Source: an uncultured virus (IMG/VR IMGVR_UViG_3300029775_000206)
Taxonomy: Duplodnaviria > Heunggongvirae > Uroviricota > Caudoviricetes
Virus record (IMG/VR): IMGVR_UViG_3300029775_000206
Location: 1 to 64,000 of that record
Direction: 5' to 3' (one strand)
DNA length: 64,000 nucleotides
Shown here: positions 1-33,473 of the stretch, piece by piece
Layout of the letters: the number at the start of each line of letters is the position of its first letter
How positions within the stretch are numbered: the stretch's first letter is position 1
Made by a program: the position numbers and the translations under genes
Notes under the pieces: model-generated
Database searches by the model: none
What the model saw: the letters and a program-made list of their open reading frames with translations, nothing else
What the model was told of the DNA's origin: nothing

Positions 1-56
1 GGCGTTTGGGTCAAATTTCGTCCGGCGTTTCCATCATTTCTTTTCCGGCGTTGACA
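1..56. mobile_element. End of an IS21-family-like insertion sequence, running off the window edge
   Basis: Minus strand from 56 reads TGTCAACGCCGG...AAACGCCGG...AAACGCC: a TGT terminus with repeated subterminal ACGCC(GG) motifs. GC content jumps abruptly and the McrB-like ORF stops just inside it. Confidence 0.7.
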
Positions 57-1458
57 GAAGTGCTCTTGAGTCAAATTTAAGATCATTTTCATGAACAAAA
101 TATACACCGAGGCGCTTATCCTCAGCAGATGCCATTTTAGCTTTGTTTCCAACGATAATTGTATTTACAGTTTCACAGAAGCGTTTCCAAGTAACATCAG
201 TATCTAAAATTTCTGCATCAGCCAGCGAAGGACGTACATTGTCAAAGTTATTCTCAATAAGTCTCATCCGCCATCTACGTTGGAACGCAGTATCAAGAGT
301 GAATACATTCTGGTCAGATGTATTCATTGTGCCAATTATAGAAAGGTTGGAAGGGATGCGAACCTTATGTGCTGGATTTCCATAAATAAATTCAGCCATG
401 TATTTATGGGTAATACCATACTCGCTCGTTCCTACTGGAAAACCATCATCGCCATCCTGCATCTCAACTTTTCGATCAAGCAGTTGGAATATCTCTCCAA
501 AAATAGCAGGTGCATTACCACGATTAATTTCCTCAATTATAAGGATGTATTTGCTCATCGGATTGCGATATGCATTAGAAAGAATCGTAGTAAATGGTCC
601 AGGTGTGAATTCATATGTAACTTGTTTATCCTCGTCTACCACAGGCAGAATCTGTCCAACGAAATCTGCATTTGTATAATCTGGATGGAAAACCAAACGA
701 TCAACAATGCTATCTTCGTTGCAATATTCATGCTCAATAGTCCAGCTCTTTCCAGAGCCAGGAACACCATATAGAAGGATATTCTTTCCACCTGTTATTC
801 TATCAGCGTAATCATAATCAATTTCTCCAAGCATCTCTACGTTTACTCTTGTATTAGTTGCTAATTTAAAGAATTGATTATTCAGTTCCTGCAGGCCACC
901 ATCTTCATCAATACCACGATTCGGGATAACGCCATAACACTCATACTCAAATAATTGGTGCTTCTTCAAAATTATTAAATAGGAGCCTGCATGCAATAAT
1001 CTTCTAAAGGCAATAAAGTCTTCCCCATCGAAGTTGATTAGAGATACTTGTATTTGATCAGCTTGTGCTCGTCTTTTACCCCTAACAACAGATGTTACCG
1101 AACGTTTTTTATCAGAGGTAAAAGATATGTTTGAACCTTCACTATTACGGTCAAGATACTCTACATTAGACTTCGTTAAAATCATTGGTACTTGAGTTAT
1201 AAAGTATTTCTTTAAGTCCGCATCTGATTCAGAATCATTGAAGTACCCATCTGACCGAAGATATGGGAAAATATCCATTTGAACTCCAGTTATGGCTATA
1301 TGCGTCTGATTTGTCGTTCTTCCGTCGTCAAGGGTATTAGATGCCTCTAACTTCTTAACGATAATCCCATCATAAACATTTTTATCAATTGTTGTACCTA
1401 TCAAGGCTAAAACGCTTTGAATTCTTTCGATTGCTTCATTAAATGTCATACTCTTCAC
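34..1458 (-). pseudogene. McrB/LlaJI.R1-like AAA+ GTPase restriction subunit, C-terminus truncated by the IS
   Basis: Walker A GVPGSGKS, Walker B IIEEINRG, McrB signature MNTSD..LDTAFQRR. The last residues (STPEKK*) are encoded by the IS end. Confidence 0.8.
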
Positions 1459-1462
1459 CTCA

Positions 1463-2905
1463 TTATAAATAATTTTTAATTACTTCCGCTATAGCTCGAC
1501 CTAAAAGAGGGGGTACTGAATTTCCTATTTGCATATATGTTTTTGTATATGCACCCCGGAAAAAGTAATCATCTGGATATGATTGCACCCTTGCGGCCTC
1601 TCTTGGAGTTAGTCCACGCGCTTGTGTTGGATGTATATACATATTACAGTCAAACTTCATATGAGCCGTTATGGTTTTACATACTTTATTTTCCTCAAGT
1701 TTAAAATACTTATCTTTAAAAATGTCATTTCTTCTACTATAAGGCATGATATCTGCAATCTTAGGATCATCTGATCTATCACCTTGGTTAAGCCTTCCAA
1801 ATATTTCTATATCTCGATCATTATTATACCTAGCCTTATGATTAAACACTATGGGACAGTTTCGATTTTGATTAATAAACTGAATATAATCATTTTCAAC
1901 AACTGAAGTCTTTTTTTCAATTTTCTTTCCTGATATCTCAGAGTCTACTTCTGTAGCATTTTTCTTTCTAGATGCTTCGAGTTCCCTTAATCCAAATAGT
2001 GCATCTGCTAAAACAGTATTAGGAATTGCCTCAGAAAGTCCTTCAATTTCATCGAATAATTCATCGTTATTTATCTCAACTCTATTGCCAATAAAAATTA
2101 GTCTTTCTCGATTTTGTGGCACTCCATAATCCTTAGCGTTTAGTATCCTGCATGAAACTGAATATCCAATGTTCTCAAAATCTTCTATTACTTGAGTGGA
2201 TACAGATTTCATACCTTTCACATTTTCCATTACGAAAAACTTTGGCTGGACCATTGATACAACTTTAACATAACTCTTATAGAGCTTATTACGCGGATCA
2301 TCAATGAGTCGTTGTCTATTAGCCATGCTAAATCCTTGGCATGGTGGGCCTCCCACAACAACATCAACCTCATCAAACCTCTGTAGATTTTCAATATTAT
2401 CAATAACATCATTAATATCACCAAGTATAATGTGTTCCCTAGGTGTTTCCGGATGATTATGTGCATATGTATCTACGCAACAAGGCTCTATGTCATTTGC
2501 TAAACTTGTAATGAAACCGCTTTGTGTAAAGCCTAAAGAAAGACCACCAGCCCCACAAAATAAATCGATCATGACTGGTGCGTTGTGGTCATAATTTTCA
2601 ATACGATTGCGAATATAACTATTACAATACTTGGATATAACACATTCATTACACTTTTGCGTACCACAACAATCATCGTATAATGCTGTAAGTAATTTAC
2701 CTATTTTTTGAGATTTTTTTGCTGACTGTTTAAATATGGAACCACGTCCATCTAAGTATTCGTTACCTACCGCTGAAGCTATATAGTCTAGCACAGTCTG
2801 TGCTTTATTCTTATCAAAATTATAATCCTTATTATAAATAGATGATAATATAGAATTAATTTCTTCTTTATCTTTATTGAAATTGAAACTCTCCATTATG
2901 CCCAT
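1463..2905 (-). CDS. DNA (cytosine-5)-methyltransferase with a Cys-rich N-terminal extension
   Basis: Motifs DLFCGAGG, GGPPCQGFS, ENVKG, QNRER, QIGNSVPP. Confidence 0.93.
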   Translation of the reverse strand: MGIMESFNFNKDKEEINSILSSIYNKDYNFDKNKAQTVLDYIASAVGNEYLDGRGSIFKQSAKKSQKIGKLLTALYDDCCGTQKCNECVISKYCNSYIRNRIENYDHNAPVMIDLFCGAGGLSLGFTQSGFITSLANDIEPCCVDTYAHNHPETPREHIILGDINDVIDNIENLQRFDEVDVVVGGPPCQGFSMANRQRLIDDPRNKLYKSYVKVVSMVQPKFFVMENVKGMKSVSTQVIEDFENIGYSVSCRILNAKDYGVPQNRERLIFIGNRVEINNDELFDEIEGLSEAIPNTVLADALFGLRELEASRKKNATEVDSEISGKKIEKKTSVVENDYIQFINQNRNCPIVFNHKARYNNDRDIEIFGRLNQGDRSDDPKIADIMPYSRRNDIFKDKYFKLEENKVCKTITAHMKFDCNMYIHPTQARGLTPREAARVQSYPDDYFFRGAYTKTYMQIGNSVPPLLGRAIAEVIKNYL

Positions 2906-3828
2906 TCTCCTAATTCTAATAATACATCTTTAATCTTTTCTGCAACTGCTTGCGAAACATTAACAGTAACTGCATTTCCAAATTGCTTATATGCTTGTGA
3001 ATCAGAAACAGGGATTACAAAATCGTCATCAAATCCCTGCAGTCTCGCACATTCACGGGGAGTGAGACGCCTTACTCTACCATTTTGTGTAACATAATTA
3101 TCTTGGCAAGCTCTGTGCATTTTTGCCATAGTTGCACATAACGGTCTTGCTATTTCCAAATCAATTTCTGATTTAGCCTTATATCCACCCGTTCCATTAG
3201 ATAAGATGGTTGGCAATATCCTATCAGATAAAAAATATTTCTGATCAACATTGTGTTCCAATAGATCTTGCAATGTTAAATCAAGCTCCTGCTTTTCCGG
3301 AAACAAAAACTCTGCATTTTCATTTGCAAAACAAACGATATATGTTCTGTTTCTTGTTTGCGGAATACCATAATCAGCTGTATTCAATACATCTGTAAAG
3401 ACCTTATAACCCAAATCTTTTTCTAAGATATTTAAGATTGTTTTGAATGTCCTTCCTTTATCATGGGTGCGTAATGAACGTACATTTTCCAAAACAACTA
3501 CTTTTGGCTTTTCATTTTTATCTATTTTATATTTTATTATTTCTGCTATTCTAAAAAAAAGAGTTCCACGAGCGTCTTCAAAACCTCTTTTTTCACCCAT
3601 CATGCTAAACGGTTGACAAGGGAACCCACCTATTAAGACATCAAAATCTGGCAGTTCCTCAAGAGGGATATCGTTTATATCTCCAAGCACGATGTGGTCA
3701 CCAAAATTCTCCTTATATGTCTGAACAGCATATTTATCAAAATCATTTGCCCATACAATGTCATAGCCAGCATTTTGAAAGCCTTTATCTAAACCCCCAC
3801 ATCCACTAAATAGGGATAGAATTCTCAT
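2896..3828 (-). CDS. DNA (cytosine-5)-methyltransferase
   Basis: Motifs LFSGCGG, GFPCQPFS, ENV, QTRNR, QFGNAV. Confidence 0.95.
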   Translation of the reverse strand: MRILSLFSGCGGLDKGFQNAGYDIVWANDFDKYAVQTYKENFGDHIVLGDINDIPLEELPDFDVLIGGFPCQPFSMMGEKRGFEDARGTLFFRIAEIIKYKIDKNEKPKVVVLENVRSLRTHDKGRTFKTILNILEKDLGYKVFTDVLNTADYGIPQTRNRTYIVCFANENAEFLFPEKQELDLTLQDLLEHNVDQKYFLSDRILPTILSNGTGGYKAKSEIDLEIARPLCATMAKMHRACQDNYVTQNGRVRRLTPRECARLQGFDDDFVIPVSDSQAYKQFGNAVTVNVSQAVAEKIKDVLLELGEWA

Positions 3829-3834
3829 ATTTTA

Positions 3835-4017
3835 TTACTCCTTTCGGGACTTTATATACTCCCGTATCCACGTACCAATTTCAATTGAAGCTTTTTTCCC
3901 TTCGAGAGCCAATAATTCCATGAATTCTTTTTTGATTTCTGGTTCTATGGCTACTTCAATTTTGGCTGTTTTTACTTTACCGGGAGGTCTCCCACATATT
4001 TTTGATTTATTATTCAT
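3835..4017 (-). CDS. Small basic DNA-binding (RHH-like) protein, probable RM controller
   Basis: 60 aa, GRPP motif, GGAG RBS, first gene of the RM operon. Confidence 0.55.
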   Translation of the reverse strand: MNNKSKICGRPPGKVKTAKIEVAIEPEIKKEFMELLALEGKKASIEIGTWIREYIKSRKE

Positions 4018-4151
4018 AAGTGACTCCTCCAGGAATTAATCCTTATTATATAATGATTACATCAGGGTCTAAAATAGTATAGCATAGACTGTAGGAAATT
4101 TCAATCCCCCAAATCGACATGAATTTCGCGGTTAAAGTATGCAAATAGATC

Positions 4152-4255
4152 GTCAACTCAATTCTATTTTTGCAGTAATTCTATCCACTCGCCACATTTT
4201 TGACAGTAATTTCGTCAACTCAGTAGGCAATTAGTAACAATGTCCACTCAACCCT
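4152..4255. repeat. Four degenerate RTCMACTC repeats spaced 31, 31 and 28 bp
   Basis: gtcaactca 4152, atccactcg 4183, gtcaactca 4214, gtccactcaaccct 4242. Confidence 0.6.
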
Positions 4256-4387
4256 GTATTTTCGGGGTTTTAGATATGTTCTTACAATAAAAATATCCGT
4301 GACCTAGAACCCAGCTTGAATATGAGTTCAAAATCACGGAATTCCCTTTATATCAAGCACTTTTTCGCTTTTATTTATCAACCCTTG

Positions 4388-6288
4388 ATAGAGTAGAACA
4401 GTGGGTTTACCACCGTCCCCTCATCAAACCGTACGTGCGATTTTCCCGCATACGGCTTTCCGATATTCTTCTTCCTTCAGCATTCAGCCGCACATATTTG
4501 CTAGTCCTGCCTGTTTAGTCAATTCTCTGACCTTTGCTGCACTTCCTAGCCTATAATTGCGTTGTTTCTTCCGATTGTACCACCGAGTAAACTTGAAATT
4601 TATATACTTATCTATCTTCCATAACCATGGTCTGCTAAATCGTCTGGTATAATAGTTCCTCATGCCAATGATTTTAGGATTGAGTAGCTTCACCATCTCT
4701 TCCATACTTAGCAGCAGCTTGCTAGGACTGTTAAATACCTCTTTTATGTTAGCTCTCATTTTCTTCATAGCCTTCTTAGACGGTATCTGTTGTAGTGTCC
4801 AATACCACTGCCAGTTTTTATTTCTAAAACGCTGAAATCTATTATTGAAGCCAAGAAAATCAAAACTACCTTTACCAAAATACATATCAACCAGTCTTGT
4901 TTTCTCACTGTGAAGCGTTAGTTCCAGTTTTTCCATAATCCACTTCACAGCGCGCAAGGCTTCTTCTGCATGAGATAACCTCTTACACAATATCACAAAA
5001 TCATCTGCATAACGCACTAATTCACCCAGATGTCCAAAGGCTTTATTCCAATACACATCAAAATAATTCAGATATATGTTGGACAATAGTGGAGAAATAA
5101 CTCCACCCTGCGGTGCTCCCAGTATACTTTCACTGTACCATCCGTTTTCCAGCACTCCTGCTTTTAACCAACTATTTATCAGCTTTAATACTCTACGGTC
5201 AGTTATTCTTTGTTTGAGCAACAAAATTAGCTTATCATGGTTGATGCTACCAAAATAATCTTTTATGTCAGCATCTATTACCCATAGTGCACCACCTTTG
5301 TCGGACACTTCAAATATCCTGTCCATTGCTTGTTTAGCACTTCGTTTCGGTCTAAATCCATACGAACAGGGTTGAAAATCTGCTTCAAACACCGGCTCTA
5401 TCACTATCTTTGCCGCCATCTGTACTATTCTGTCCTTAATCGTAGGTATCCCCAATGCTCTTTTTCTACCATCTGGTTTTGGAATATAGCTTCGTCTGAC
5501 AGGCTTACACCGGTACTTCCCAGTCCTCAATTCTTCCGCTATTTCGCCCAGTAGTTTTTCTTCACCGTACGTTTTCACATCATCAATGCTGACTTTGTCA
5601 ATACCGCCTGTTCCACCATTCTGTTTTACCCGTTTCCATGCTTCTTCTAAGATATCATTACGGTATATCTTGTCATACAACGCATAGAACTTTCTCTTTC
5701 GGTCAGCTTTGGCTGTAAGGTATAGTCTGTTTTGGAAGTCTCGTACTTTTTCATGGGTGTTTATAGCTTTTTCGGCAATCACCGGCACCTACCTCCTTTA
5801 CAGACTTGAATAAAGTTGTGCCCCTTCCCTATGCACAGTTTTGTTGTCTGTACAATCCTTGGTACTATGAGCACTTCTGACTGCCTCTTTGCAGAAAGCA
5901 ACTTCGCTTTTGCTTATATGCTTCCTCTTTACAGTTTCCTGTGCAAAGTAGGCTCTCTCCAGTTCCGACAAATACTTTCCTGACGTGTCGTTACCTCTAC
6001 ACCGCAGGGTTCTTAGGTATTGCATTTAGGGTTCTTCATACCGTCTTCTGTCTTTGCTGTTGATGTCGCAGCTCGACTCCCTGTTGTTTCCTTTCGGAAA
6101 TGTAAATAACGGTGCGGCAGTATTCACTTTATGTTACAACCCGCCAGTTTGCCTGCTCCTTACGGAACATTCCGTAACGCTTCAACGCATAGATTACACC
6201 ATACGCTGGTTACTGACTAAGTGGCTGCCCTACCTTTACCACTGCAGGACTTTCACCTGCTAGCATTTGCCAGCTTAGCTGGACGCAC
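4388..6288 (-). mobile_element. Complete group II intron (~1.9 kb)
   Basis: 5' GTGCG at 6288; domain V GAAAGCCGTATGCGGGAAAATCGCACGTACGGTTT; domain VI ending ...CTACTCTAT at 4388; EBS1 loop ACATCAA (~6060-6066) complementary to the exon end TTGATGT. Confidence 0.92.
4484..5788 (-). CDS. ltrA: Group II intron reverse transcriptase/maturase without endonuclease domain
   Basis: RT0 region, RALGIPTIKDR, PQGGVISP, YADD, thumb/X domain; 434 aa, no HNH domain. Confidence 0.95.
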   Translation of the reverse strand: MPVIAEKAINTHEKVRDFQNRLYLTAKADRKRKFYALYDKIYRNDILEEAWKRVKQNGGTGGIDKVSIDDVKTYGEEKLLGEIAEELRTGKYRCKPVRRSYIPKPDGRKRALGIPTIKDRIVQMAAKIVIEPVFEADFQPCSYGFRPKRSAKQAMDRIFEVSDKGGALWVIDADIKDYFGSINHDKLILLLKQRITDRRVLKLINSWLKAGVLENGWYSESILGAPQGGVISPLLSNIYLNYFDVYWNKAFGHLGELVRYADDFVILCKRLSHAEEALRAVKWIMEKLELTLHSEKTRLVDMYFGKGSFDFLGFNNRFQRFRNKNWQWYWTLQQIPSKKAMKKMRANIKEVFNSPSKLLLSMEEMVKLLNPKIIGMRNYYTRRFSRPWLWKIDKYINFKFTRWYNRKKQRNYRLGSAAKVRELTKQAGLANMCG

Positions 6289-6443
6289 ACATCAATACGA
6301 CCGTCTCAACGTGGCTTGAGAGGACAGAACGAATGTCTTTCGAGCCGTCGGTTCTCGGAAACATATCCACTACATTTTTTGCACTATCGGTAGACGGGAA
6401 CATATCGACATAAAAATATGTAAACACACTCTTTGCGTTTAAA

Positions 6444-7886
6444 TCAATCTTTAATGTATTCAGAATTCATTATGCAAATCATATACAATACAGATGGCAG
6501 TATACCTTCCTGCAATGCAATATAACTTATACTTGCACCTTGCTGCAAAAAACCTTTCTCATCTGTTGTAGTATGGAGAGGATTCCTTTTATGCATATCT
6601 TCCCTTACCAGTTTGCACAATCGTTTCATTTCAAATTGAGGTATCTGATTTACTTTCTTTATAATAGTCTCCTTAGAAATAACATCATCAGATAATGCAT
6701 TAAATATATCTATAAATTTCTCAAAATCTTGACTTGGCAATTCGTAATTGCAATTATAGTGCTTTGCTTTGCAATTTAATCTTCCCCATAATATATCTAC
6801 TTTTTCACATTGGAATATCTTCTTTGGAAAATGTGTCTCAATAAACGCTCTGTCTTTTTCATCATAATAGTAAAAAATTACTTTTGTTAGTTTTTTATTA
6901 TTTAGTATGGCATCAAAAATATGTGCATCATTGTTTGGTGACATCCCAATAAGAATCAATTCTCCTTCTATTTTACTGAAATCTTCAAAATGGTATTCTG
7001 TTGCCATGCTCAATTCCGGATGTGAAATCTTCGTCATAATCATGCTATATTCTAGAGGTTTTTCTTCTTTTAACCTTTCTACCTGTTGTTTGAATGTCTC
7101 ATCATTCGCATATCTATCAGCAAAATTTTCAGCCTCCTGAATTAAGCGATGACTATCACTTATAACTTTATATTTTAGTCTACCACTATAATTCAAAAGA
7201 GCATTACAAAAACAATGTTTCATATCTTCGAAAGCAACTGTTTCTCCAGCCATCTTTCTGATATACCCCAAAACATTATTTTCATTTTCGCTATTTGCTA
7301 AAACTGAAAAATCGCCATGAAGATGATAAACTTCTTTCTGAGTTAAATTCTCAATATTATTATCATAATTCAAGGTATATATATTATCAAAGGATTGGAA
7401 ATAGCGTCTAACCTTTTTATTTTGTTTCATTTTCTTATAAATTTCTTGAATTTTACCACTATTAAAGATTGCATCCAGTATTAAACGTTCGAATCCTTGT
7501 ATTGCAGATTGTCTATTTTCCTCCAAGTCGAAATTCTTCAAGAAGAACATATGAACAACAAAAAACCAATCTTCGAGCATTATATCATATGCATTCTCTA
7601 TAGTTGTATCATAGCGACCTTTAAAATCCTTTAATGCATCCAAAGTATCATCATCTGTAGCAAAAGAATCATACTCGCCTTTACGAATTTTATTAGCTTC
7701 TTCAACAAAATTTTCTAATAAATTGACTATCTCATTACCTGTAAGTTTATTCCCAAACAACTCATTATAACTATCAAGTTTAGCTCGATATTTTATTCTC
7801 TTCATAATAAAATTACTACTGTATGCAATCCCACCAAATTGAATATTAATACCATTGCCTAATAATAAATTTTTCAAAATATACAT
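6444..7886 (-). CDS. SIR2-like/AbiH-like putative defence protein
   Basis: LLLGNG near the N-terminus, TLNYD, HLHG and LIGMS motifs in SIR2-like order. Confidence 0.6.
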   Translation of the reverse strand: MYILKNLLLGNGINIQFGGIAYSSNFIMKRIKYRAKLDSYNELFGNKLTGNEIVNLLENFVEEANKIRKGEYDSFATDDDTLDALKDFKGRYDTTIENAYDIMLEDWFFVVHMFFLKNFDLEENRQSAIQGFERLILDAIFNSGKIQEIYKKMKQNKKVRRYFQSFDNIYTLNYDNNIENLTQKEVYHLHGDFSVLANSENENNVLGYIRKMAGETVAFEDMKHCFCNALLNYSGRLKYKVISDSHRLIQEAENFADRYANDETFKQQVERLKEEKPLEYSMIMTKISHPELSMATEYHFEDFSKIEGELILIGMSPNNDAHIFDAILNNKKLTKVIFYYYDEKDRAFIETHFPKKIFQCEKVDILWGRLNCKAKHYNCNYELPSQDFEKFIDIFNALSDDVISKETIIKKVNQIPQFEMKRLCKLVREDMHKRNPLHTTTDEKGFLQQGASISYIALQEGILPSVLYMICIMNSEYIKD

Positions 7887-7901
7887 CCCCCATTACTGCT
7901 A

Positions 7902-8342
7902 TTAATCTTCATCACAATCCTGCAAACCATCAAACACTAACAACTGTTCTATGGGTAAACATTTCCTTAAAAATAGAGTTAAATCCATACCTCCAACAGC
8001 TACTCCACCACAAAGTGAACCTTTGGAAATATACTCTTCATCTTCAGTATCTGTAATAACCATTTCCCAATTGCCTATATCTGTCGCATAGCAAACCAGT
8101 TGGTCACTATTTAAGTACTGTGAAAAAAGTTCCAGTATCTCCTTTGCTACAGGTTTCCCGATAGCAAACTGTTGTCTTCTACAAATCTCAAAATGGTCAA
8201 ACCCATTGGCATACTTATATCCTGTAAACCATACTCTACCAATAGCAGATATAGTCAAATGCTGTTCCACTTCATCTTCAGGAAGTGGTTCTGGACCATA
8301 GCATATATTATTAGATACAATTCTTATTTTTTGTATCTGCAA
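7902..8342 (-). CDS. Hypothetical protein
   Basis: 146 aa ORF with RBS inside a tightly packed operon. Confidence 0.6.
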   Translation of the reverse strand: MQIQKIRIVSNNICYGPEPLPEDEVEQHLTISAIGRVWFTGYKYANGFDHFEICRRQQFAIGKPVAKEILELFSQYLNSDQLVCYATDIGNWEMVITDTEDEEYISKGSLCGGVAVGGMDLTLFLRKCLPIEQLLVFDGLQDCDED

Positions 8343-8354
8343 TCAAAACACCTC

Positions 8355-8825
8355 CTAAATCTCGTTCAATATTTCTTTCATTCGGTCAATCATATAATCC
8401 TTCTCAGTATCTATTGGCCCATTGCTTTCTTGTAAGTCATTAATGTAAGATTCTATAATATCCTTAGAGTTTACAAAGCTTATATTTTTGGATGAATTGC
8501 TGAGGATAACTTGTGCATCAATATAAGCACTTATGCTATTAATCACAATATTTAACAACTTTTCCGCCTGTTCAGTATTTCCGTTTTTCATTGCTTCCTT
8601 TGCGGAAAAACTTAATGAACGTATATCTTCTCCCCATATTGCATACCTTGACGGAGTTGCTTTGCAATTTTCATCACACGAGTCAAAAATTGCCCTTTCA
8701 AATCTGTCCATGACCATTTCTTCACTGTCGTTTTCTTTTACTCTCTCAATAATAATCGGATTCTCTGAACCCCGATATTTATAAAAACTTATGATAGCTC
8801 TCATTAAGGCTTCCATCCGTGCCAA
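8355..8825 (-). CDS. Hypothetical protein
   Basis: 156 aa operonic ORF. Confidence 0.6.
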   Translation of the reverse strand: MARMEALMRAIISFYKYRGSENPIIIERVKENDSEEMVMDRFERAIFDSCDENCKATPSRYAIWGEDIRSLSFSAKEAMKNGNTEQAEKLLNIVINSISAYIDAQVILSNSSKNISFVNSKDIIESYINDLQESNGPIDTEKDYMIDRMKEILNEI

Positions 8826-8854
8826 TATCCATCACACCCTTCTTCCGTAACTAT

Positions 8855-9853
8855 TTAATACTTCTTTGGAAATTTTTTTTTTCCAAGTTGCCATAGGTAC
8901 TTATCTATATCTTTAAGGTTATATGGCTCAAGATCATAGAACCTACTGAATTTCAGTAAAATGTTTTTGAACTTAACATAGTCCTTTAGGTCGTCATTGC
9001 TAAATCTATAAAACCCATCAACATCCCTAAAATAGCGAAGAAGCCTATCTACATAACTGTCATAGATAGGAAAGTCCAAAGGCTTATGATGGCTGCAATA
9101 TTTTGTTGCAAAGGAATAAAAATTTTTCACCGTACCGTTATCCATATTGACTCTGGCAATATCATTTACTAAAGTTACATCACCCGCCATCAGCCTTTCA
9201 TCAATATCTAAATTGATGATGTGTTTTGCGACCTTAAATGGAGAGAATATGTTGGTGCTGTAAAAGTCATTCAAGGCTGAAACTTTTATAAGAACGTCGT
9301 CGATATCTTTATTATTGGGATATGTCCGGTAAAAGAGTTTATCTAAGGCGCTTTCCTGTAATGCATAGTTTTCTAGCTGATCCCAAGCCAATAAGTATTT
9401 AGTCACTTCCTCACAGCTTGGCTGCGGAACTTCCGGTCTTGCAGCTTTCTTCTTGTAAGTAGTTGCAGAATCCTTATTAATAGTTACATATTCAACCTCG
9501 TTGGGTTGGTTTGCCTGAGCAAATTCTATGTAGCTACCCACACTTCCATAGGTATTATCTAAAAATTCCTTAAAGATTTTGAATGTGCGCATATAGCCAT
9601 AAGAATCTCTTTTGGGGTCTTTATGGGATTGCTCATTAGTAAACTTAATTTCTAATAATTCACGCGCTTTTCTTAATGAATTCTCACCGATAAATACATC
9701 CCAGAAATCCATGCCAATATCATGGCGATAAGGATAGAAAGCATCACTATAAATTACACTTTTATCTTTCAGGTGTTCATAATTATCATTGAGGTATTTC
9801 TTAAATTGTTCTCGTAGTGCCTTTATATGTGAACTTCTTATTTTATCCATCAA
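8855..9853 (-). CDS. Hypothetical protein; C-terminal half resembles an HhH glycosylase-like fold
   Basis: SFATKYCSHH-P---PIYDSYV and DKYLW motifs; strong AGGAGG RBS. Confidence 0.5.
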   Translation of the reverse strand: MMDKIRSSHIKALREQFKKYLNDNYEHLKDKSVIYSDAFYPYRHDIGMDFWDVFIGENSLRKARELLEIKFTNEQSHKDPKRDSYGYMRTFKIFKEFLDNTYGSVGSYIEFAQANQPNEVEYVTINKDSATTYKKKAARPEVPQPSCEEVTKYLLAWDQLENYALQESALDKLFYRTYPNNKDIDDVLIKVSALNDFYSTNIFSPFKVAKHIINLDIDERLMAGDVTLVNDIARVNMDNGTVKNFYSFATKYCSHHKPLDFPIYDSYVDRLLRYFRDVDGFYRFSNDDLKDYVKFKNILLKFSRFYDLEPYNLKDIDKYLWQLGKKKFPKKY

Positions 9854-9900
9854 ATTTTACCTCCTCCTTGCATAAAAAGGTGCCTGATTAAATCTATCTA

Positions 9901-10143
9901 TTAACCTTTTTTGTACTTTTGCTGATTTGATGAAGTCTTTTCAATGGCTTTTAGATTACCATCCATTTTGCTAACCTGATTAAGAAATAAAGTTCCAAGC
10001 AGAAGTCGATCCTTTCTTGGTATTCTATTCCACACATAACCCTTGAACAGGTCTTTAACTAAAAAGACTTCACCTTCATTCAGATTTTCAGTTTCTATGA
10101 TAGCTTCTTCTAATAACTCATTAACATCGCTCATGTTGTCCAC
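9901..10143 (-). CDS. DUF1413-like small DNA-binding protein
   Basis: GEVFLVKDLFKGYVWN...LLGTLF pattern. Confidence 0.6.
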   Translation of the reverse strand: MDNMSDVNELLEEAIIETENLNEGEVFLVKDLFKGYVWNRIPRKDRLLLGTLFLNQVSKMDGNLKAIEKTSSNQQKYKKG

Positions 10144-10181
10144 TCCTTATCAATAATAATATCAACAACATTGTTAATATT

Positions 10182-10210
10182 ATTATATATGCATTACCAA
10201 TTTTAGTCAA
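10182..10210 (-). promoter_or_regulatory. Sigma-A-type promoter for the cargo operon
   Basis: TTGACT-17 bp-TATAAT on the minus strand. Confidence 0.7.
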
Positions 10211-10280
10211 TTTATAAAAGAAAAAACCGTCAAACAAGAGAATGTATCTCCTGATTGGCGGTCGGTCACCAAGGTTATGT

Positions 10281-11846
10281 TCACACATCGATTTCGACAC
10301 CTGATTTGAACTCTACAGTAAGCTTACTATCAAATACCGTAACTTTTTCAATAAGCCTCCTTACCAATTGCTCATCATATTCCTCCAACTCGTAGGACTG
10401 CTCATTTAAGAAATCTGTCATCTCAGCGATTCTCTGCCTTTTTCCTTCACGCTCTGCATTTTCAACCAGTGCATTTTGCTTCAGTTCCCGCAAGCGATAT
10501 ATCTCATCAGCCACTTCGTTATAGTCATTTTTGGACTTTGCTTGTTTAAGAAGCTCCTTCTGCAATTCTTCCAATTTGCTGTCAATGTCATCAGTAGCAT
10601 TATCATTTTCCTCATTAAGTACAGCAGCTATGTTTTCCTGCAATGCCAGGAGGAAAGGTTCTTTGTTAGCCAAAAGTTCATTGATAGCCTTTACAACCGC
10701 TGTCTGCAATGTTTCCTCGTTAATGGTTGGGGAGGTACAGTCAGAATCCTTTTCCTCCAGGCGGCTGACACATCGCCAAACAATAGACTTGTAACCTCGG
10801 TTATTCCAGTGTACCCGGCGGTAAATGTCGCCGCACTCTCCGCAGTAAACAATACTAGATAAGGCATACTTACTGCTGTAAACTCGCTTTTTTCCGCCTT
10901 TGCCGCTTTGGATGTTTGCCCTCCGAACCATTTCCTCCTGCACCTGCATATAAAGGTCACGGGGGATAATAGGCTCGTGGCTGTTTTCTACATAATATTG
11001 GGGAACGATGCCGTTATTCTTGACTCGCTTTTTGGAAAGAAAATCAACAGTATATGTCTTTTGCAAAAGAGCATCTCCGATGTACTTTTCATTCTGCAGT
11101 ATCTTTTTCAGTGTTTCAGGTCTCCATTTTGCTTTGCCTGCCGCCGTAAGAACACCGTCTGCCTCTAAGCCTCGTGCTATTTGTAAAAGGCTGGCTCCCT
11201 CAAGGTATTCTCTGTAAATTCTTTTTACAATCTCTGCACCCTCAGGGTCAATCACCAGATGCTTGTTTTCATCTTTAGTGTATCCGAGGAAACGGTTATG
11301 GTTGACTTGAACTTCACCTTGCTGATATCGATATTGAATGCCCAGCTTAACATTCTGACTTAAGGATTGGCTCTCCTGTTGCGCGAGGGATGCCATAATG
11401 GTCAGCATGATTTCGCCCTTGGAATCCATCGTGTTGATATTCTCTTTCTCGAAAAATACAGCGATATTCTCATCCTTTAACTGACGAATATATTTTAGAC
11501 AGTCCAAAGTATTTCGAGCAAATCGGCTGATGGATTTTGTAATTATCATATCAATATTTCCTGCCATACACTCATCAATCATCCGGTTAAATTCTTCACG
11601 CTTTTTTGTATTGGTACCCGTGATGCCATCATCTGCAAAGATACCTGCAAACTCCCATTCCGGATTCTTTTTAATGAACTCTGTGTAATGGGCAATCTGT
11701 ACCTCATAACTTGAAGCCTGCTCATCACTATCTGTGGAAACACGGCAGTAGGCTGCCACTCGTATTTTCTGTTTGCTTTCATTATTCTTATTATTTCCGA
11801 CTCGTTTAATTGCCGGAATCACCGTTACATTCTTACTTACCGCCAT
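10281..11846 (-). CDS. Large serine recombinase
   Basis: YCRVST catalytic motif, KSISRFARN, recombinase domain, CGECG zinc ribbon, coiled coil. Confidence 0.95.
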
Positions 11847-11849
11847 CTG

Positions 11850-12263
11850 CTACACCTCGCTTTCTATCAGGCTGTAAGCATATTCCGCCTGCTTGAATGG
11901 GTTATCATATTTCTGTTCCAGGGGTTTTGCTTTGAACTCCACGGCATAGTCTGCTTCTGGCGCATCCTTTGGCTCCCATATCCTTCCCAGCCTTTCGGCT
12001 CGTTTTTGTTTCTCTTCTCCGGCTTTTTCGAAGGTGTCCTCATCAATAATCGGAGGATAGAACTCATCACCAAGGTATTGCTTATTCTGCAGCATTCTGC
12101 CTGCAGTGGCATGATAGCAGTCTATTCCGGCCTTTTTAGCCGCATCCTTTAAAGAAAGTCCAGCCAAATATCCGGCAAATAACTCCTTTACTTGAACTGC
12201 CGCCGTTTCATTTATCACAGCCATTCCGTTTTCAATTCTATATCCATAGGGTGTATGACCCAT
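11850..12263 (-). CDS. Small recombinase-domain-only protein
   Basis: PYGY...MLQNKQYLG...PPII; no catalytic domain. Confidence 0.8.
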   Translation of the reverse strand: MGHTPYGYRIENGMAVINETAAVQVKELFAGYLAGLSLKDAAKKAGIDCYHATAGRMLQNKQYLGDEFYPPIIDEDTFEKAGEEKQKRAERLGRIWEPKDAPEADYAVEFKAKPLEQKYDNPFKQAEYAYSLIESEV

Positions 12264-13829
12264 CTAATTCACCAACCTTTCTCTCAGTGTGATTCCACAC
12301 TTTAATTCAAATCCAATCTCTTCTCGTGAATAGACAATAATCCGCTCTACATAATTTTCAAACAGCTCATTCTCATAAGCTGTGAGCATTTTGGATTTAG
12401 CAGCAAACTTGAGCAGATGGCTGACCTCCTCTACTTTTGCAAGATTGCCGTTTACTGAATGAGCAAGCTGCTCCTTTTCAGCCAGCAGCCTTGCGCTCTC
12501 TGCTGCCAGTGAATTCTTTTCTTTATTGAACAGGGCAGGTTCCAGATATCCTTTGGTCATTAAACCTGTCAGCATCTGACTTTGCTCTATGTTGTTTTCA
12601 ATCTTGTTTTCCAGTTCCTCAATTCTGCGATAACTTGCTGTGTTGTTTTGATTACGCAGCCCATCTAAAAGCGGTCTTAATATGAACTTCTGACCGAAAA
12701 TGAGTTTATTCATCATCGTAACAAACGCCGTCTTTATATCATCATCTCGAATAAACTGCATGGAACATTCCGTTATCTGCCTTATGTGCTTACTGCAGCA
12801 CCAAGCGATATATTTTCTTGCTCCGGATGAATGAACCCGCCTTTTAAAGGTACTGCCACATTCAGAGCAGATGATTTTGCCGGAAAATGAATATCGGTTT
12901 TGATACTTGTTATTGCGCTTTTCAATTCCCTTTTCCTTTGCTCTCTGGCTGATAACGGCATCAGCTGCATCAAAATCTTCATGGCTGATAATCGCCTCAT
13001 GGTGGTTTTCCACCAGATACATATTCTTCTCACCATAATTGGTGTGTCTATTAAAATGGCTGTCCGTATAGGTCTTTTGTAGAATAGCATCACCAGTATA
13101 TTTTTCGTTGCAAAGAATCCCTCGGATTGTTCCAGCAGTCCATCGGCCGCCTTTTTTTGTAGGAACATTCCGATGATTAAGGTCATCCGCAATTTTCTGA
13201 GTCCCCTTGCCTGATAATGCCTCTGCAAAAATAAACTTCACAACTTCCGCCTGCTTGGGATTCACAATCATCTGACCGTCTATGTTTTTATAGCCGTATG
13301 GTGGATATGATACCTTGAAAGTTCCGTTCTGAAAGCGTCTTTGAATTGCCCATTTGTTATTTTCTGAAATGGAAATTGACTCACTTTCTGCAAGTCCACT
13401 TAAAATGGAGAGCATCAGCTCGCTTTCCATTGATTGGGTATTTATATTTTCTTTTTCAAAATAAATGTAAACATCAAGGTCTATCAGCTTGCGAACCATC
13501 TCAAGACAGTCTGCAGTATTTCTTGCAAATCTGCTGATGGACTTTGTAATTATTAAGTCAATCTTACTATTTTCACAGTCTGATATCATTCTAAGCAGTT
13601 CAGAACGGTTTTCTTTTTTCGTACCGCTGATACCCTCGTCATAATAAAGGCCTGCGTATTCCCATTCTGGGTTAGCCTTGATATAAGCTTCATAGTGGAC
13701 CTTTTGTGCCTCTAAGCTGACAAGCTGCTCATCACTATCTGTAGAAACTCGGCAGTAGGCAGCTACTCGCAGCTTTGGCTTGATAAAAGAATCGGCCATA
13801 TTTCCTTCTATTTTCGTTATCTTTTTCAT
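12264..13829 (-). CDS. Large serine recombinase
   Basis: [20 protein letters not shown]. Start taken at MKKITK, which follows a GGAGGTG RBS. Confidence 0.95.
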   Translation of the reverse strand: MKKITKIEGNMADSFIKPKLRVAAYCRVSTDSDEQLVSLEAQKVHYEAYIKANPEWEYAGLYYDEGISGTKKENRSELLRMISDCENSKIDLIITKSISRFARNTADCLEMVRKLIDLDVYIYFEKENINTQSMESELMLSILSGLAESESISISENNKWAIQRRFQNGTFKVSYPPYGYKNIDGQMIVNPKQAEVVKFIFAEALSGKGTQKIADDLNHRNVPTKKGGRWTAGTIRGILCNEKYTGDAILQKTYTDSHFNRHTNYGEKNMYLVENHHEAIISHEDFDAADAVISQRAKEKGIEKRNNKYQNRYSFSGKIICSECGSTFKRRVHSSGARKYIAWCCSKHIRQITECSMQFIRDDDIKTAFVTMMNKLIFGQKFILRPLLDGLRNQNNTASYRRIEELENKIENNIEQSQMLTGLMTKGYLEPALFNKEKNSLAAESARLLAEKEQLAHSVNGNLAKVEEVSHLLKFAAKSKMLTAYENELFENYVERIIVYSREEIGFELKCGITLRERLVN

Positions 13830-13890
13830 CCTCTCACCTCCACTTCGGTAGGTCACATATTACCTCTGAAGCCTTTATATATCAACGACT

Positions 13891-14127
13891 TTAAGGCATT
13901 ATCTCTGCCAAAACGGGAGAGAAAGTTTGACGATTTAATACGGTAATTTTGGTAAATTCATCTTCAGTAATTAAGCCTTGTTCGAGCATCCTTTTCAGCA
14001 ATTTTTCTGCCTGGATATAATTAAACTCATGCTGTAACTGTTCATGCGATACTGTCTTTGGTTCGATTCTGTTCTCTATGATTTCATCCGTAATCTTTGT
14101 AACTTTCCTATCCTCACTCTGATTCAT
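13891..14127 (-). CDS. SHOCT-like small protein upstream of the recombinases
   Basis: LKRMLEQGLITEDEF motif. Confidence 0.7.
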   Translation of the reverse strand: MNQSEDRKVTKITDEIIENRIEPKTVSHEQLQHEFNYIQAEKLLKRMLEQGLITEDEFTKITVLNRQTFSPVLAEIMP

Positions 14128-14140
14128 AAATCATTACCTC

Positions 14141-14176
14141 CTACCTAATAGCCGTGGGAACAGGTCGAAGTTGAGG
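14141..14176 (-). promoter_or_regulatory. Conserved phage promoter-like motif, copy 1
   Basis: CCTCAACTT-14 bp-GGCTA-2 bp-AGGTAG; same motif at 47956 and 52263. Confidence 0.7.
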
Positions 14177-14205
14177 TTTTGTAAAATAATTTGAATCAGA
14201 GCATA

Positions 14206-14242
14206 AAAAAAGAGCCTGCAGGAGCAGCGAACCCCCACAGGC
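14206..14242 (-). terminator. Intrinsic terminator after the endolysin
   Basis: GCCTG...CAGGC hairpin followed by a T-run on the minus strand. Confidence 0.6.
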
Positions 14243-14255
14243 AATTTTCTATTCA

Positions 14256-14951
14256 TTATTCAGTTTTTATAAATGCGTCTTTAAATCCCGCCGCCTTGAC
14301 CTTTGCAAGCTGTGCCTCGGCATTGGCTTTAACGCTGTATGCACCAACCTGAACACGGTAGAGCTTTCCCTGTTCAGTGGGTGCAATAGGTTTCGACAGA
14401 AGTTTTTCAACATCAGATCTAAAAGTGTCCATTGACTTACCATGTTTCGGAAACCAATGCATAACATCTCCATGGTTAGAAGCAATGCCTAGTTTGTAAC
14501 CTTCGCTGTGGCAGATGATGTTCTTTTCAGTTAAGCCATACTGCTTACAGAGGTAGGCACATAATTCTACAGCTTCTTTATAAACAGCATTGAAATAAGC
14601 AGCATCGGCCAAATCATCCTCGCAGATTTCAAATCCTATATGAGTATCATTGGCAGAGCCACCAGAGTGCCAGCCCCGGTAATTCCACGGTAGCGTCTGG
14701 TAGGCGGCAATTGTGCCGTCATTCAATTTGCCAATAAAACCGTGGGCGCAGACTTCCCGGCCATCCGGTGTGTTCTGATTCCAGTGGTTGTTGTTCTGGT
14801 TCTTGCCAAGCAGTCCATCATCGGGTCCGACATAACGTTTCAGGCAAGGGTTATTCGCCCCGGTGGAATGCACCATAATACCTTTCGGGGTTATTGTCTT
14901 TCCTGCCTTATAGCAGGCATTGTTTGTTAATATCAGCTTATGCAAATTCAT
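14256..14951 (-). CDS. Endolysin: N-acetylmuramoyl-L-alanine amidase with SPOR domain
   Basis: IMVHST, GWHSG, GFEIC, CHSE..H.D; C-terminal YRVQVGAYS. Confidence 0.9.
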   Translation of the reverse strand: MNLHKLILTNNACYKAGKTITPKGIMVHSTGANNPCLKRYVGPDDGLLGKNQNNNHWNQNTPDGREVCAHGFIGKLNDGTIAAYQTLPWNYRGWHSGGSANDTHIGFEICEDDLADAAYFNAVYKEAVELCAYLCKQYGLTEKNIICHSEGYKLGIASNHGDVMHWFPKHGKSMDTFRSDVEKLLSKPIAPTEQGKLYRVQVGAYSVKANAEAQLAKVKAAGFKDAFIKTE

Positions 14952-14968
14952 TTCATATCACCTCTTTG

Positions 14969-16363
14969 TTAGAATGGGTTGACAGCCGCAAGGGCGGCAG
15001 GATACAGATGGTAAGTAAACTTTAGGTCACAATATGCAGTCGGCGATGTGCCATCACTGCCCATGCTGATATACAGTCCATAACCTGCAGGCACTCGGCT
15101 CTGACACATTTCAATATGAATGTGCAGTCCTGCGTTGGCATTGTCAGCACCGATAGGCGTACTTCGTGAGATCCTGGTAAATGTCACTTCATCGTTTGAA
15201 ATATATAAATCCAGTTCTTTCTCAGTCGTATCCGATTGACGGCAAAGGGTAGTAAGATGGCAGTCATAAGCCGTTGGGTAAAGCAGGCCATCCTGTCCGC
15301 CTATGACCACACTGCCGATAGGCAGAACCGTCTGCATAGGCCCTCGGATACTGTTGGCACCGCCAGAACCGGATGCATTGCCCGACAGGACATATCTCAA
15401 GTAGCTTGACCTGGTAAATGCATTAATCGCAGCTGCTGCAGTAGATGTGAGAGTCAATGCTGTCGTCACGTTTTCTGCCTTTTCCAAAAGGAATAGACTC
15501 TCACCTGCGGCAATGGAAACATCACCGATGGAGAATATCCGGCTCGTCCAATAAGCAGTGACCGCCGGATTTGGTTTTGTCCCTGCACCATAAGCAATGT
15601 TTACATTGTCCTGAATACCCCTTATGGCTTCGGCAAGTTTCTGAACAGTTTGACGAAGATTACTTTGCATCCGCACCTGCACATTATTCACCGCCGGACT
15701 GCCAAGGGATGCGACGATTGTATAGGTTATGGATCCCAGCACTACATTGCTGCCCGTCACTATATTTGTGAAAGTAATGGATGCTCTTCGGCTTAGCAAA
15801 TCCGGCGCAGTGGCTGTTTCAATCGGATGGAAATGGTTGAGGAGAATCCCTGTCCGCGTGTAAAGTGTGTCACGGGTTTCCCCGATTAAATCATGCGTGG
15901 TGTTTAATAAACTGTGGTTATCATTTACCGAATTGTAGGTGAGTGTCAGCAGACTGTACACATCGTTCACATCGAGTGCAGCTAAGGCCGCAAGCACTTG
16001 ATTCAGCCATTCCTGTGCAGGAGGCTCCGGTGGTTCGGCTATGCCATCCGCAAGAGCCTCCTCCACAATGGTAATAACTTTTGCACTTTTTCCAACCACA
16101 TCACCAAACACGACTCTGATTTCTAATTGGCCCACGCCGGCATCTATGGTATCAGCCGCACTCGGTGACCATGTCAGAACCCCGGCGCTGTAACTTGTAA
16201 CCACAGGATAAGCAGTTCCATCGGGTCTTTTATATATAGCCTGCAGTGAAGTAGCGGGATAATCGTTTCCCATCAAACTGGAAATATCAAACTCGATGCT
16301 ACGGAAATGATTCTCACCGCGCCGGCCGATGTATACGGTTGATGCCTTCGTTAAATCAATCAT
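14969..16363 (-). CDS. Putative virion protein with BppU-like N-terminus
   Basis: IGRRGEN...YKRPDG..YPV...LTW...GQLEI N-terminus; Thr/Ser/Ala-rich beta-type C-terminus. Confidence 0.55.
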   Translation of the reverse strand: MIDLTKASTVYIGRRGENHFRSIEFDISSLMGNDYPATSLQAIYKRPDGTAYPVVTSYSAGVLTWSPSAADTIDAGVGQLEIRVVFGDVVGKSAKVITIVEEALADGIAEPPEPPAQEWLNQVLAALAALDVNDVYSLLTLTYNSVNDNHSLLNTTHDLIGETRDTLYTRTGILLNHFHPIETATAPDLLSRRASITFTNIVTGSNVVLGSITYTIVASLGSPAVNNVQVRMQSNLRQTVQKLAEAIRGIQDNVNIAYGAGTKPNPAVTAYWTSRIFSIGDVSIAAGESLFLLEKAENVTTALTLTSTAAAAINAFTRSSYLRYVLSGNASGSGGANSIRGPMQTVLPIGSVVIGGQDGLLYPTAYDCHLTTLCRQSDTTEKELDLYISNDEVTFTRISRSTPIGADNANAGLHIHIEMCQSRVPAGYGLYISMGSDGTSPTAYCDLKFTYHLYPAALAAVNPF

Positions 16364-16797
16364 TTTCCGTCACCAGCCATTGGAGGTTCATCATCTCTTC
16401 CGTGAAGCTGCTTAAGAACCTCTTTGAGCTTTTCAGGGATGGGCAGCCCAATATGCCCGGCATTCTCCAAAATGGAGATTCCTTCATTGCTCAGGTAAAA
16501 GAAAATCACCGCCGTACGAAGTGCACCACTATTCCCGGTGCTGCCTAAAATCTGCGTATCAAGAATATTGGCAACACCTACTAAAACAAAGATAAGTACC
16601 TTTTTAAAGATACCCTTAGCACCAATCTCACTGGACAGCTTTTTATCAATAATCGCACAAAGTATGCCTGTCAGATAATCTATAACGACAAAGGCGATAA
16701 GGGCATAAAGAAATCCATCCAAGCCCCCAAGAAACCATCCGAGAAATGCACCGACAGCAGCAAAAGTTAGCTGTATCCAATTCCAAATCTCTTTCAT
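16360..16797 (-). CDS. Phage holin (holin_4_1-like)
   Basis: GWFLGG.DG, IDYLTG, NEGISILEN, GLPIP motifs; transmembrane segments. Confidence 0.9.
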   Translation of the reverse strand: MKEIWNWIQLTFAAVGAFLGWFLGGLDGFLYALIAFVVIDYLTGILCAIIDKKLSSEIGAKGIFKKVLIFVLVGVANILDTQILGSTGNSGALRTAVIFFYLSNEGISILENAGHIGLPIPEKLKEVLKQLHGRDDEPPMAGDGK

Positions 16798-16882
16798 TAA
16801 AAACACCTCCATTAAGTTGAATTTGTGTATAGAAAAGCGCCCCTGCACATCACAAGAGCGCTGAATTGTATTTTTTCAACCT

Positions 16883-19240: not shown

Positions 19241-19251
19241 GGTTATTCACC

Positions 19252-19755: not shown

Positions 19756-19772
19756 AGACTGTTTCCTCCTTC

Positions 19773-21668: not shown

Positions 21669-21670
21669 TC

Positions 21671-22522: not shown

Positions 22523-22535
22523 GGCCAGACCCCCT

Positions 22536-25064: not shown

Positions 25065-25079
25065 GCCATCACCTCCTCC

Positions 25080-25660: not shown

Positions 25661-25670
25661 CTCTTACCTC

Positions 25671-26261: not shown

Positions 26262-26265
26262 ATTC

Positions 26266-27376: not shown

Positions 27377-27377
27377 A

Positions 27378-27695: not shown

Positions 27696-27716
27696 ATCAT
27701 CCGCCTCCTCCGCTGA

Positions 27717-27929: not shown

Positions 27930-27941
27930 AATGCACCTCCG

Positions 27942-29147: not shown

Positions 29148-29167
29148 TATGTTTTTCCTCCTTCAAA

Positions 29168-33438: not shown

Positions 33439-33473
33439 AGACCTTATCCTCCTTATTTTTGCTGGGCAACCCT

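Follow-up and report, generated by a model that had tools for sequence, protein, structure and literature searches.

The window, by which we mean the whole 64,000-nucleotide (nt) stretch (positions 1 to 64,000) of the uncultured virus record IMGVR_UViG_3300029775_000206 that was analysed, contains a group II intron on its minus strand. The intron interrupts a copy of the last codons of rlmD and sits at the edge of a predicted attachment (att) site of a large serine recombinase. The intron and its immediate surroundings comprise the following features.

4388..6288, minus strand: complete group II intron of 1,901 nt, with its 5' end (GTGCG) at 6288 and its 3' end (..CTACTCTAT) at 4388
6129..6262, minus strand: conserved core of domain I (D1); Rfam group-II-D1D4-4 (RF02003), 88.9 bits (gathering score 49)
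6056..6074, minus strand: hairpin of exon-binding site 1 (EBS1), stem GCUG/CAGC, 9-nt loop CGACAUCAA
4484..5788, minus strand: intron-encoded protein (IEP), 434 amino acids, with a reverse transcriptase (RT) and a maturase (X) domain; GTG start with AAGGAGG ahead
4388..4460, minus strand: domains V and VI; Rfam Intron_gpII (RF00029), matched along the whole model at 57.3 bits (gathering score 40); bulged A in ..CUAC..
6289..6337, minus strand: occupied att dyad, positions 1-49 of 50, with position 50 being the C at 4387; centre CA at 6313-6312; right junction of the 55.5-kb prophage described below
4371..4387, minus strand: 3' exon, the end of the rlmD-tail replica (..S RVDK stop), from sequence and translation

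Both ends of the intron conform to the group II boundary consensus GUGYG / AY, with GTGCG at 6288 and ..CTAT at 4388, and identical ends are found in 28-30 homologs. A consensus fold of the first ~490 nt, derived from 14 homologs, contains 137 pairs, 22 of them with compensatory changes, and gives a length of ~476 nt for domains I to III (D1-D3). The IEP is encoded by the only long open reading frame (ORF) within the intron. It matches the Pfam families RVT_1 (residues 102-315, 1.1e-35) and GIIM (residues 341-412, 3.8e-08), scores 421 bits against TIGR04416, the NCBI model of group II intron RTs/maturases (cut-off 300), and its closest solved structures are group II intron RTs (5hhj, 7uim and 6ar1; E 1e-54 to 2e-49). 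The Pfam scan of the 434-residue IEP revealed no H-N-H endonuclease domain after the maturase domain. Boundaries, domains I, V and VI, an RT-maturase ORF in domain IV and the pairing of EBS1 with intron-binding site 1 (IBS1) described below are all in place, and the element is, as judged from its sequence, a complete, endonuclease-less (En-less) group II intron of mobile type. Here intron ends, Rfam domains and protein all agree with the sequence-only reading of this DNA, which had placed an endonuclease-less group II intron at exactly these coordinates. The intron is 99.9% identical to two copies in the assembly of Herbinix hemicellulosilytica.

The exons around the intron read ..CACGTTGAGACGGTCGTATTGATGT and CAAGGGTTGATAAATAA, encoding in frame ..HVETVVLMS RVDK and a stop. 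The junction itself is ..GTATTGATGT followed by CAAGG.., the insertion lying between TTGATGT and C. EBS1 (ACAUCAA, 6066..6060) is complementary in 7 of 7 nt to the exon end UUGAUGU, as the sequence-only reading had noted, and the G at 6067 of the same loop could pair with the C at +1. The EBS1 stem corresponds to helix columns 217-220/230-233 of the 14-homolog fold, in which pair 219:231 covaries (UA 9, CG 3, UG 2). In locus L026 the exon end ..GATGA is matched by a loop reading ..UUAUCAA, and this compensatory exon/EBS1 change is direct comparative support for the predicted EBS1-IBS1 pairing. The bare 8-mer TTGATGTC has three further occurrences in the window, all intron-free, so more than 8 nt must be recognised; the additional recognition cannot be read from the sites, because upstream exon positions vary only at codon wobble sites. 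Two empty sites (L083, in G001, and the second site of L010) end in TTGATGA, a mismatch to EBS1 at -1, and one of the two is the genuine rlmD of the Herbinix assembly. TTGATGA at empty sites may represent a resistant allele, yet L013 holds an intron at TTGATGA without a compensating EBS1.

A search with the IEP through a set of one genome per species yielded 79 loci, 30 of which show the 5' junction and carry an intron 79-100% identical at the nucleotide level. These 30 genome loci and two viral contigs constitute the 32 close relatives with a readable 5' junction, and all 32 are inserted at the same rlmD-tail target, a shared coding sequence of 25 nt. The genome introns invariably follow ..GTNGTN(T/A)TGATG(T/A), represented by 27 TTGATGT, two TTGATGA and one ATGATGT, and the 3' exon begins with C in 28 of the 28 loci where it is readable. 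A further viral-contig copy (L177), found by pattern, has the same target. In most of the 30 loci the IEP frame aligns uninterrupted over residues 1-434 or 3-434. With respect to context, six of the 30 introns stand after an open frame of at least 330 amino acids, three after shorter rlmD-like frames, 17 after pseudo-frames of 10-105 codons located behind element arms, and four at contig ends, where they are uninformative. Each of the four long frames tested (L005, L011, L013 and L016) is an RlmD, scoring 241-354 bits against TIGR00479 (cut-off 183.55) and reaching the end of the model. The predicted target is the conserved rlmD tail wherever it is present, in the full-length gene as well as in tail copies at att sites. 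The proposal that the intron is specialised on such copies therefore stands in part: tail copies at element junctions make up 17 of the 30 loci, but genuine rlmD genes are also occupied (6-9 of 30).

Relatives at ~45-54% protein identity, of the same Rfam type, have quite different insertion sites, so the rlmD-tail specificity is a property of this sub-lineage. In a set of these distant relatives (L031, L033, L035, L037-L043, L045, L049, L054, L055, L057, L070, L075, L076 and L078) insertion is directly after ..ATG, with the 5' junctions near locus position 900-990, and the three tested match Rfam D1D4-4. Their hosts are Bryobacterales, Acidobacteria, Spirochaetota and other metagenome-assembled genomes (MAGs), one of which contains seven copies; the flanks before the ATG are unrelated, and many have a -10-like TAnAnT box 7-10 nt ahead. 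This looks like a different target rule based on a short motif. Megablast of the intron against the phage and plasmid collections gave no match, and tblastn of the IEP against plasmids reached at most 52% identity, in Bacillus cereus-group plasmids.

Within the window the rlmD tail is present twice, at the two ends of a prophage.

61831..61880, minus strand: second 50-bp att site, empty; potential insertion point between 61832 and 61831; left junction of the 55.5-kb prophage
6313..61831, minus strand: prophage of ~55.5 kb between the two att sites, with replication, terminase, portal, capsid, tape-measure, tail and endolysin genes and restriction-modification cargo
10281..13856, minus strand: recombinase trio near the right end of the prophage, a large serine recombinase of 530 amino acids, a small Recombinase-domain ORF of 137 amino acids and a large serine recombinase of 521 amino acids

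The motif CACGTTGA occurs on the 81.9-kb contig only at these two tail sites, which translate as ..SHVE(T/C)VVLMSR(V/M)(D/E)K followed by a stop. Both are copies rather than the gene itself, as only 59 codons are open upstream of the junction at the occupied site and 29 at the empty one, and no full-length rlmD is present on the whole 81.9-kb record. The 15-mer GTATTGATGTCAAGG has a single further occurrence, at 61841..61827 on the minus strand, without an intron; the unoccupied target that had been noticed at 61832/61831 is therefore real, with an identical GTATTGATGT followed by CAAGG.

The occupied dyad reads GACAT-N11-TCTCAA-GCCACG-TTGAGA-N11-ATGT followed by C, its left arm being the P arm of the prophage and its right arm the rlmD-tail codons HVETVVLM. 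The intron is placed between positions 49 and 50 of the 50-bp dyad, and thus lies, as had been claimed, within the outer ATGTC arm and within the rlmD-tail replica, the frame of which was confirmed. Mirrored positions match at 14/24 in the occupied dyad (binomial p = 5e-4) and at 11/24 in the window's empty copy (p = 0.02); the latter was one of six element-type sites tested, the other five of which gave 14-17/24 (p = 5e-4 to 3e-6). Three rlmD-type left arms that were tested displayed no significant dyad (7-11/24). Of 29 distinct sites whose left arm is not of the rlmD type, eleven have GACATCAAT as their exact start, mirroring ATTGATGTC of the right arm, and in many elements this outer repeat extends over 9 bp, forming the distal end of the 25-bp half-site. 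Upstream of the dyad the rlmD motif VDMFP-x-TD recurs in two additional partial copies (..VDMFPSTDSAKNVVDMFPRTDGSKD..), in the window (6357-6406, minus strand) and in L028; they may have been left behind as scars by earlier integrations, or by elements that crossed over further upstream in the gene.

Both large recombinases contain the Pfam domains Resolvase, Recombinase and Zn_ribbon_recom and match the integrase family PHROG 95 (~5e-151). A different prophage, collinear with that of the window at 65-77% nucleotide identity, is present in viral contig G006, where the trio is retained at 40.3-43.4 kb (~73% nucleotide identity; two enzymes of ~520-550 amino acids around an ORF of 137-148 amino acids). 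From 6320 to position 1 the sequences of the window and G006 agree at 100% identity. Position 6320 is 7 nt left of the central CA, and those 7 nt fall in an inner motif common to both left arms. The predicted element boundary is the dyad centre at CA 6313-6312, for which G006 provides independent support. With dyad, gene and boundary in agreement, the dyads appear to represent large serine recombinase att sites. The occupied arm and its downstream element hence abut two different prophages, which, if the assemblies are right, would mean either that integration beside the occupied arm happened twice or that one site was invaded twice. We give this modest weight; the window and G006 are both metagenome assemblies, in which short reads across an exact multi-copy repeat of 1.9 kb may be bridged wrongly. 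The window record and G006 (L108) also end within 19 nt of each other after 6,320 nt at 100% identity, which suggests that a repeat just beyond window position 1 breaks both assemblies.

Of the 9 bp of the outer repeat, the outer 8 correspond to IBS1 together with the +1 base. The intron ends one base pair inside the att edge because its 8 nt are the outer 8 nt of the right-arm recombinase motif. The parts of PMC3783163 that deal with half-sites describe the zinc-ribbon domain of a serine integrase as reading a 9-bp motif at the distal attP half-site, the corresponding motif of an attB-type arm being expected 5 bp further in. The most economical view is that recombinases and intron have probably both come to use the same highly conserved coding block. 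The position of the insertion, at the final base pair of an imperfect inverted repeat of 50 bp, would also be expected if the att dyad were recognised in the manner of group IIC introns, as a folded single-stranded stem-loop with insertion at its 3' foot. This explanation could draw on the best solved relatives of the IEP, which are IIC-type RTs (5hhj, 7uim and 6ar1), and on a 12-nt loop with AGG after the first D1 hairpins, which fits a IIC criterion given in a portion of PMC12350094. It is nevertheless very unlikely. A hand-merged list of 42 distinct sites, from which duplicate fetches were removed, holds 33 occupied sites, and 12 of these have rlmD-type left arms of the kind that gave no significant dyad (13 sites on the list have such arms; 21 of the 29 sites with other left arms are occupied). 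In a hairpin IBS1 would be the 3' strand of the outer stem and therefore sequestered, EBS1 comprises 7 nt and D1-D3 ~476 nt, and LtrA and a IIB RT score nearly as well against the IEP as the IIC RTs. The class C target rule, a DNA stem-loop rather than a long homing sequence, fails for these introns, as 32 of 32 homologs share the 25-nt coding target; the relevant section of PMC4424553 states that all classes except C home to specific sites. These data favour recognition of the rlmD-tail sequence itself.

The frequency with which such sites are filled was estimated from two sources. In a pattern census of five intron-bearing genomes (reversed-pattern control 0), 12 of 19 rlmD-tail sites are occupied and seven are empty; the cultured strain Herbinix hemicellulosilytica T3/55T has two occupied sites, whose introns are 100% identical, and four empty ones. 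A pattern scan of viral contigs found at least 119 stretches, and among the matches listed, from which 80 sites were counted, 79 are empty and one is occupied, with C at +1 in 80/80. The intron would thus be a rare occupant of an abundant site that fills a good part of the copies where it is present. Within single genomes the introns of L001 and L028 are 100% identical and those of L016 and L027 99.9% identical, with differing flanks; the latter two share a contig, on which 7 kb and a small serine-recombinase element separate them. Identical introns also stand in the unrelated flanks of L020/L021 (100%) and L012/L013 (99.9%), and near-identical ones in MAGs labelled as different taxa. Multiple copies could in principle result from a dead intron being multiplied together with its junctions by element duplication or homologous recombination, which tandem arrays of related elements invite, rather than by retrohoming. 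However, similarity between loci, at 72-85%, stops ~140 nt upstream and ~200 nt downstream, whereas the introns have exact ends and reach 100% identity, the IEP frame is intact in most of the 30 loci, and EBS1 covaries with the exon in L026; purely passive spread is extremely improbable. The data instead support the idea, put forward from the sequence, that the intron may possess a self-renewing target: 32/32 relatives use the same site, 12/19 sites are occupied, near-identical copies stand in differing flanks, and no endonuclease is encoded. Read runs were consulted as Logan contigs, and in X1, the probable source run, three contigs join 4387 to 6289 exactly, the shorter side being 26 nt matched at 90% likeness. 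They were not counted as an intron-less allele, as they may derive from other empty tail sites.

The sequence-only reading had further suggested that incoming elements act as vehicles for the intron and that its presence may impair recombination. In its full form this amounts to a specialised parasite of att sites as such, which rides between hosts in the tail-copy arm of elements and disables or modulates recombination at occupied sites. Carriage is possible by structure, since excision of the downstream element takes along any copy located right of the crossover, and the 8 nt recognised by the intron are precisely the outer ones of the 9-bp repeat, where, in the attP half-site treated in part of PMC3783163, the zinc-ribbon motif sits. 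Among seven occupied rlmD-side sites a recombinase gene starts ~600 nt (L003) and ~120 nt (L016) after the intron; the near-identical introns across MAGs assigned to different taxa point in the same direction. Against this, the prophage's own tail copy at 61831 is empty. The element beside the intron is 97.8% identical between L005 and L019 over 682 nt, whereas the introns are 91.3% identical, the L019 intron being 98% identical to introns of MAGs of the same series, and the identical introns of L020/L021 and L012/L013 are in unrelated flanks. The four viral-contig copies (the window, L099, L100 and L177) are all at or near a contig or provirus end, with 0/4 in a free phage attP. In addition, six to nine copies are in rlmD itself, and two of the seven rlmD-side loci (L011 and L015) have ordinary-looking chromosomal genes downstream. 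A parasite of att sites as such is therefore unlikely, and these observations, few as the cases are, point to probable colonisation by resident introns rather than co-travel with elements. Impaired recombination is doubtful as well, because 24 of the 25 bp of the half-site are intact and only the outermost base pair is altered (C to G); in attB-type use of the occupied arm the motif would lie 5 bp further in, clear of the intron (placement as given in the half-site passages of PMC3783163). The two different prophages beside the occupied arm also speak, with the modest weight stated above, against impairment.

A bolder proposal, to which we assign a rather low probability, sees in the lineage an obligate second-order parasite that lives on the hotspots of serine-recombinase integration and shapes the arrays formed there. 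Use of the occupied arm in the attB manner would be intact, allowing more elements to accumulate, and use in the attP manner weakened, so that the downstream element would tend to be locked in place, while the identical 1.9-kb repeats and perhaps outward transcription would promote RecA-driven loss or shuffling of elements and alter recombinase expression.

Our preferred interpretation, to which we attach a probability of roughly 0.8, is that the window contains a complete, probably active En-less group II intron from a lineage that homes to the last conserved codons of rlmD (..V-V-L-M followed by S..). The intron ribonucleoprotein would find DNA through the 7-nt pairing of EBS1 with TTGATGT and a contact to the C at +1, with further recognition of the upstream exon very likely, and the intron RNA would reverse-splice into that strand. 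It would then be copied from a primer supplied at the replication fork, a route proposed because the intron has no endonuclease; the portion of PMC4424553 on intron classes places En-less introns in classes C-F, attributes to them the use of replication-fork primers and describes all classes but C as homing to specific sites. Prophages and other elements with large serine recombinases would integrate in the rlmD tail, each bringing a tail copy and therefore one more intron target, and the resident intron would colonise some of these new copies. The sequences show the anatomy of the intron, the common target, several near-identical copies in differing flanks, partial occupancy and the position relative to the dyad; splicing, the retrohoming route and any effect on recombination are inferred, the mechanism from what is established for the family. 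An unspliced message would have a stop four codons into the intron (..VVLM-CASS stop), and insertion would be nearly harmless to the host even without splicing, as the site is five codons from the rlmD stop and the protein near full length. The seven occupied rlmD-side sites are followed by recombinase genes (L003 and L016), by genes of other mobile or defence functions (L005, L008 and L022) or by ordinary-looking genes (L011 and L015).

Several points weigh against this interpretation. Five of the seven empty sites in the intron-bearing genomes (7/19) have a perfect TTGATGT followed by C, and the perfect target ~55 kb away in the window is likewise empty; because perfect targets stay empty, homing would have to be inefficient, recent, or limited by a factor that the sequence does not reveal. 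The genome loci were found through the intron protein and are uninformative on the general rate of occupancy, and which 3' exon is joined to which 5' exon could have been decided by the assembly, given the multi-copy repeat of 1.9 kb between them. Contigs of RNA run X10 have no cover on the intron and no spliced joint, which says nothing on splicing. Inspection by eye of the intron sequences and the consensus fold revealed no consistent EBS2-IBS2 pairing, and exon positions -8 to -16 differ among sites that hold identical introns. With regard to intron class, solved IIC, IIA and IIB RTs score 149-189 bits against the IEP, about alike, with none clearly closest. No link of Rfam D1D4-4 to class D emerged from S. 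meliloti pSymB, where RF02003 has no match and the introns match D1D4-2 and D1D4-3.

The DNA downstream of the intron and around the prophage junctions is rich in other mobile and defence functions.

1..4370, minus strand: start of the next element or a remnant, encoding two C5 DNA methylases and an AAA_5 protein and truncated where the contig stops

The two att junctions show that the record comprises at least three elements in tandem, with the intron outside the complete prophage. Being right of the prophage crossover, the intron belongs to the next element and not to the 55.5-kb phage; the viral record, listed in IMG/VR as one linear virus of 81,899 nt with a CheckV completeness of 100%, includes it only because the record boundaries are generous. 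The element downstream of the intron (1-4387) is absent from five intron-bearing genomes, except for its first 204 nt, which are found in one at 73% identity. The ~200 nt just after the tail copies are alike (72-85% identity) among otherwise unrelated elements, a block seen in the window at 4100-4290 and 61600-61720 (minus strand) and in L008, L014, L002, L027 and others. It holds repeated GGGTTGAG(T/G)(A/G)GA-like motifs, to which a protein of the element may bind. The stretch from the recombinases to the att site (6444-9853, minus strand) contains four ORFs of 480, 146, 156 and 332 amino acids and has no counterpart in G006; none of the four has a match in Pfam or PHROG, and the 480-residue ORF has none in NCBIfam. 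Restriction and defence cargo is dense near the junctions (34-3828, 55569-61104 and 62143-64000) and comprises a pair of NgoFVII-type endonucleases alongside a Z1-domain protein and a C5 methylase, another two C5 methylases together with an AAA_5 protein, and Fic and McrBC-like genes. Pseudomonas phage phi3 (NC_030940) was rejected; it is P2-like and unrelated, and its integrase is annotated as tyrosine-type.

There is nothing unusual in a group II intron with a fixed homing site, and the rlmD tail is a very common integration hotspot for prophages and other elements in Firmicutes. What sets the present lineage apart, with no counterpart in any paper we found, is that its homing site matches, base for base, the outer motif recognised in the rlmD-tail att sites of serine recombinases. 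At a practical level, provirus callers include such introns in 'viral' records, as in the window, and element arrays are assembled with breaks or false joins where identical 1.9-kb repeats lie at their junctions. With its two occupied and four empty sites, Herbinix hemicellulosilytica T3/55T offers a ready system for the analysis of En-less retrohoming and of its effect on serine-integrase reactions. In the literature we found no paper on the Rfam family group-II-D1D4-4 by name and no published account of a group II intron associated with the rlmD/rumA tail or with serine-recombinase att sites, a statement that does not extend to the supplementary tables of PMC12350094 (IMG/VR intron hits), which may list this record.

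Among known systems the group IIC-attC introns, such as S.ma.I2, are by analogy probably the closest in life-style. As portrayed in parts of PMC4424553 and PMC3001079, they too are En-less introns on the recombination site of another mobile system, an imperfect inverted repeat, and obtain a fresh target with each captured unit. In contrast, attC is the site of a tyrosine integrase and is recognised as a folded stem-loop, whereas the window intron is associated with large serine recombinases and a coding target read through 7 bp of EBS1 pairing; its lineage also homes into plain rlmD without a dyad, and its ribozyme is larger. Next to IIC-attC, the window lineage would therefore provide a second case of introns that exploit the sites at which other mobile elements recombine, with a different mode of recognition.

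RmInt1 of Sinorhizobium meliloti, typical of the En-less introns of classes D, E and F, homes into an insertion sequence. The proteins of the S. meliloti pSymB introns are only 36-39% identical to the IEP, and these introns belong to Rfam D1D4-2/D1D4-3 rather than D1D4-4. More generally, the window intron resembles the En-less class D, E and F introns, as outlined in the sections of PMC4424553 on these classes, in encoding only an RT and a maturase domain, in sequence-specific homing to a target in or on mobile DNA and in the expected priming at the replication fork. Most bacterial introns avoid housekeeping genes according to the same review (PMC4424553), and in its sense insertion into genuine rlmD (6-9 of 30 loci) the lineage resembles the introns of housekeeping genes, which are mostly cyanobacterial CL/ML types. 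It differs from them in that its site is five codons from the stop, where even an unspliced message would still yield a near full-length protein.

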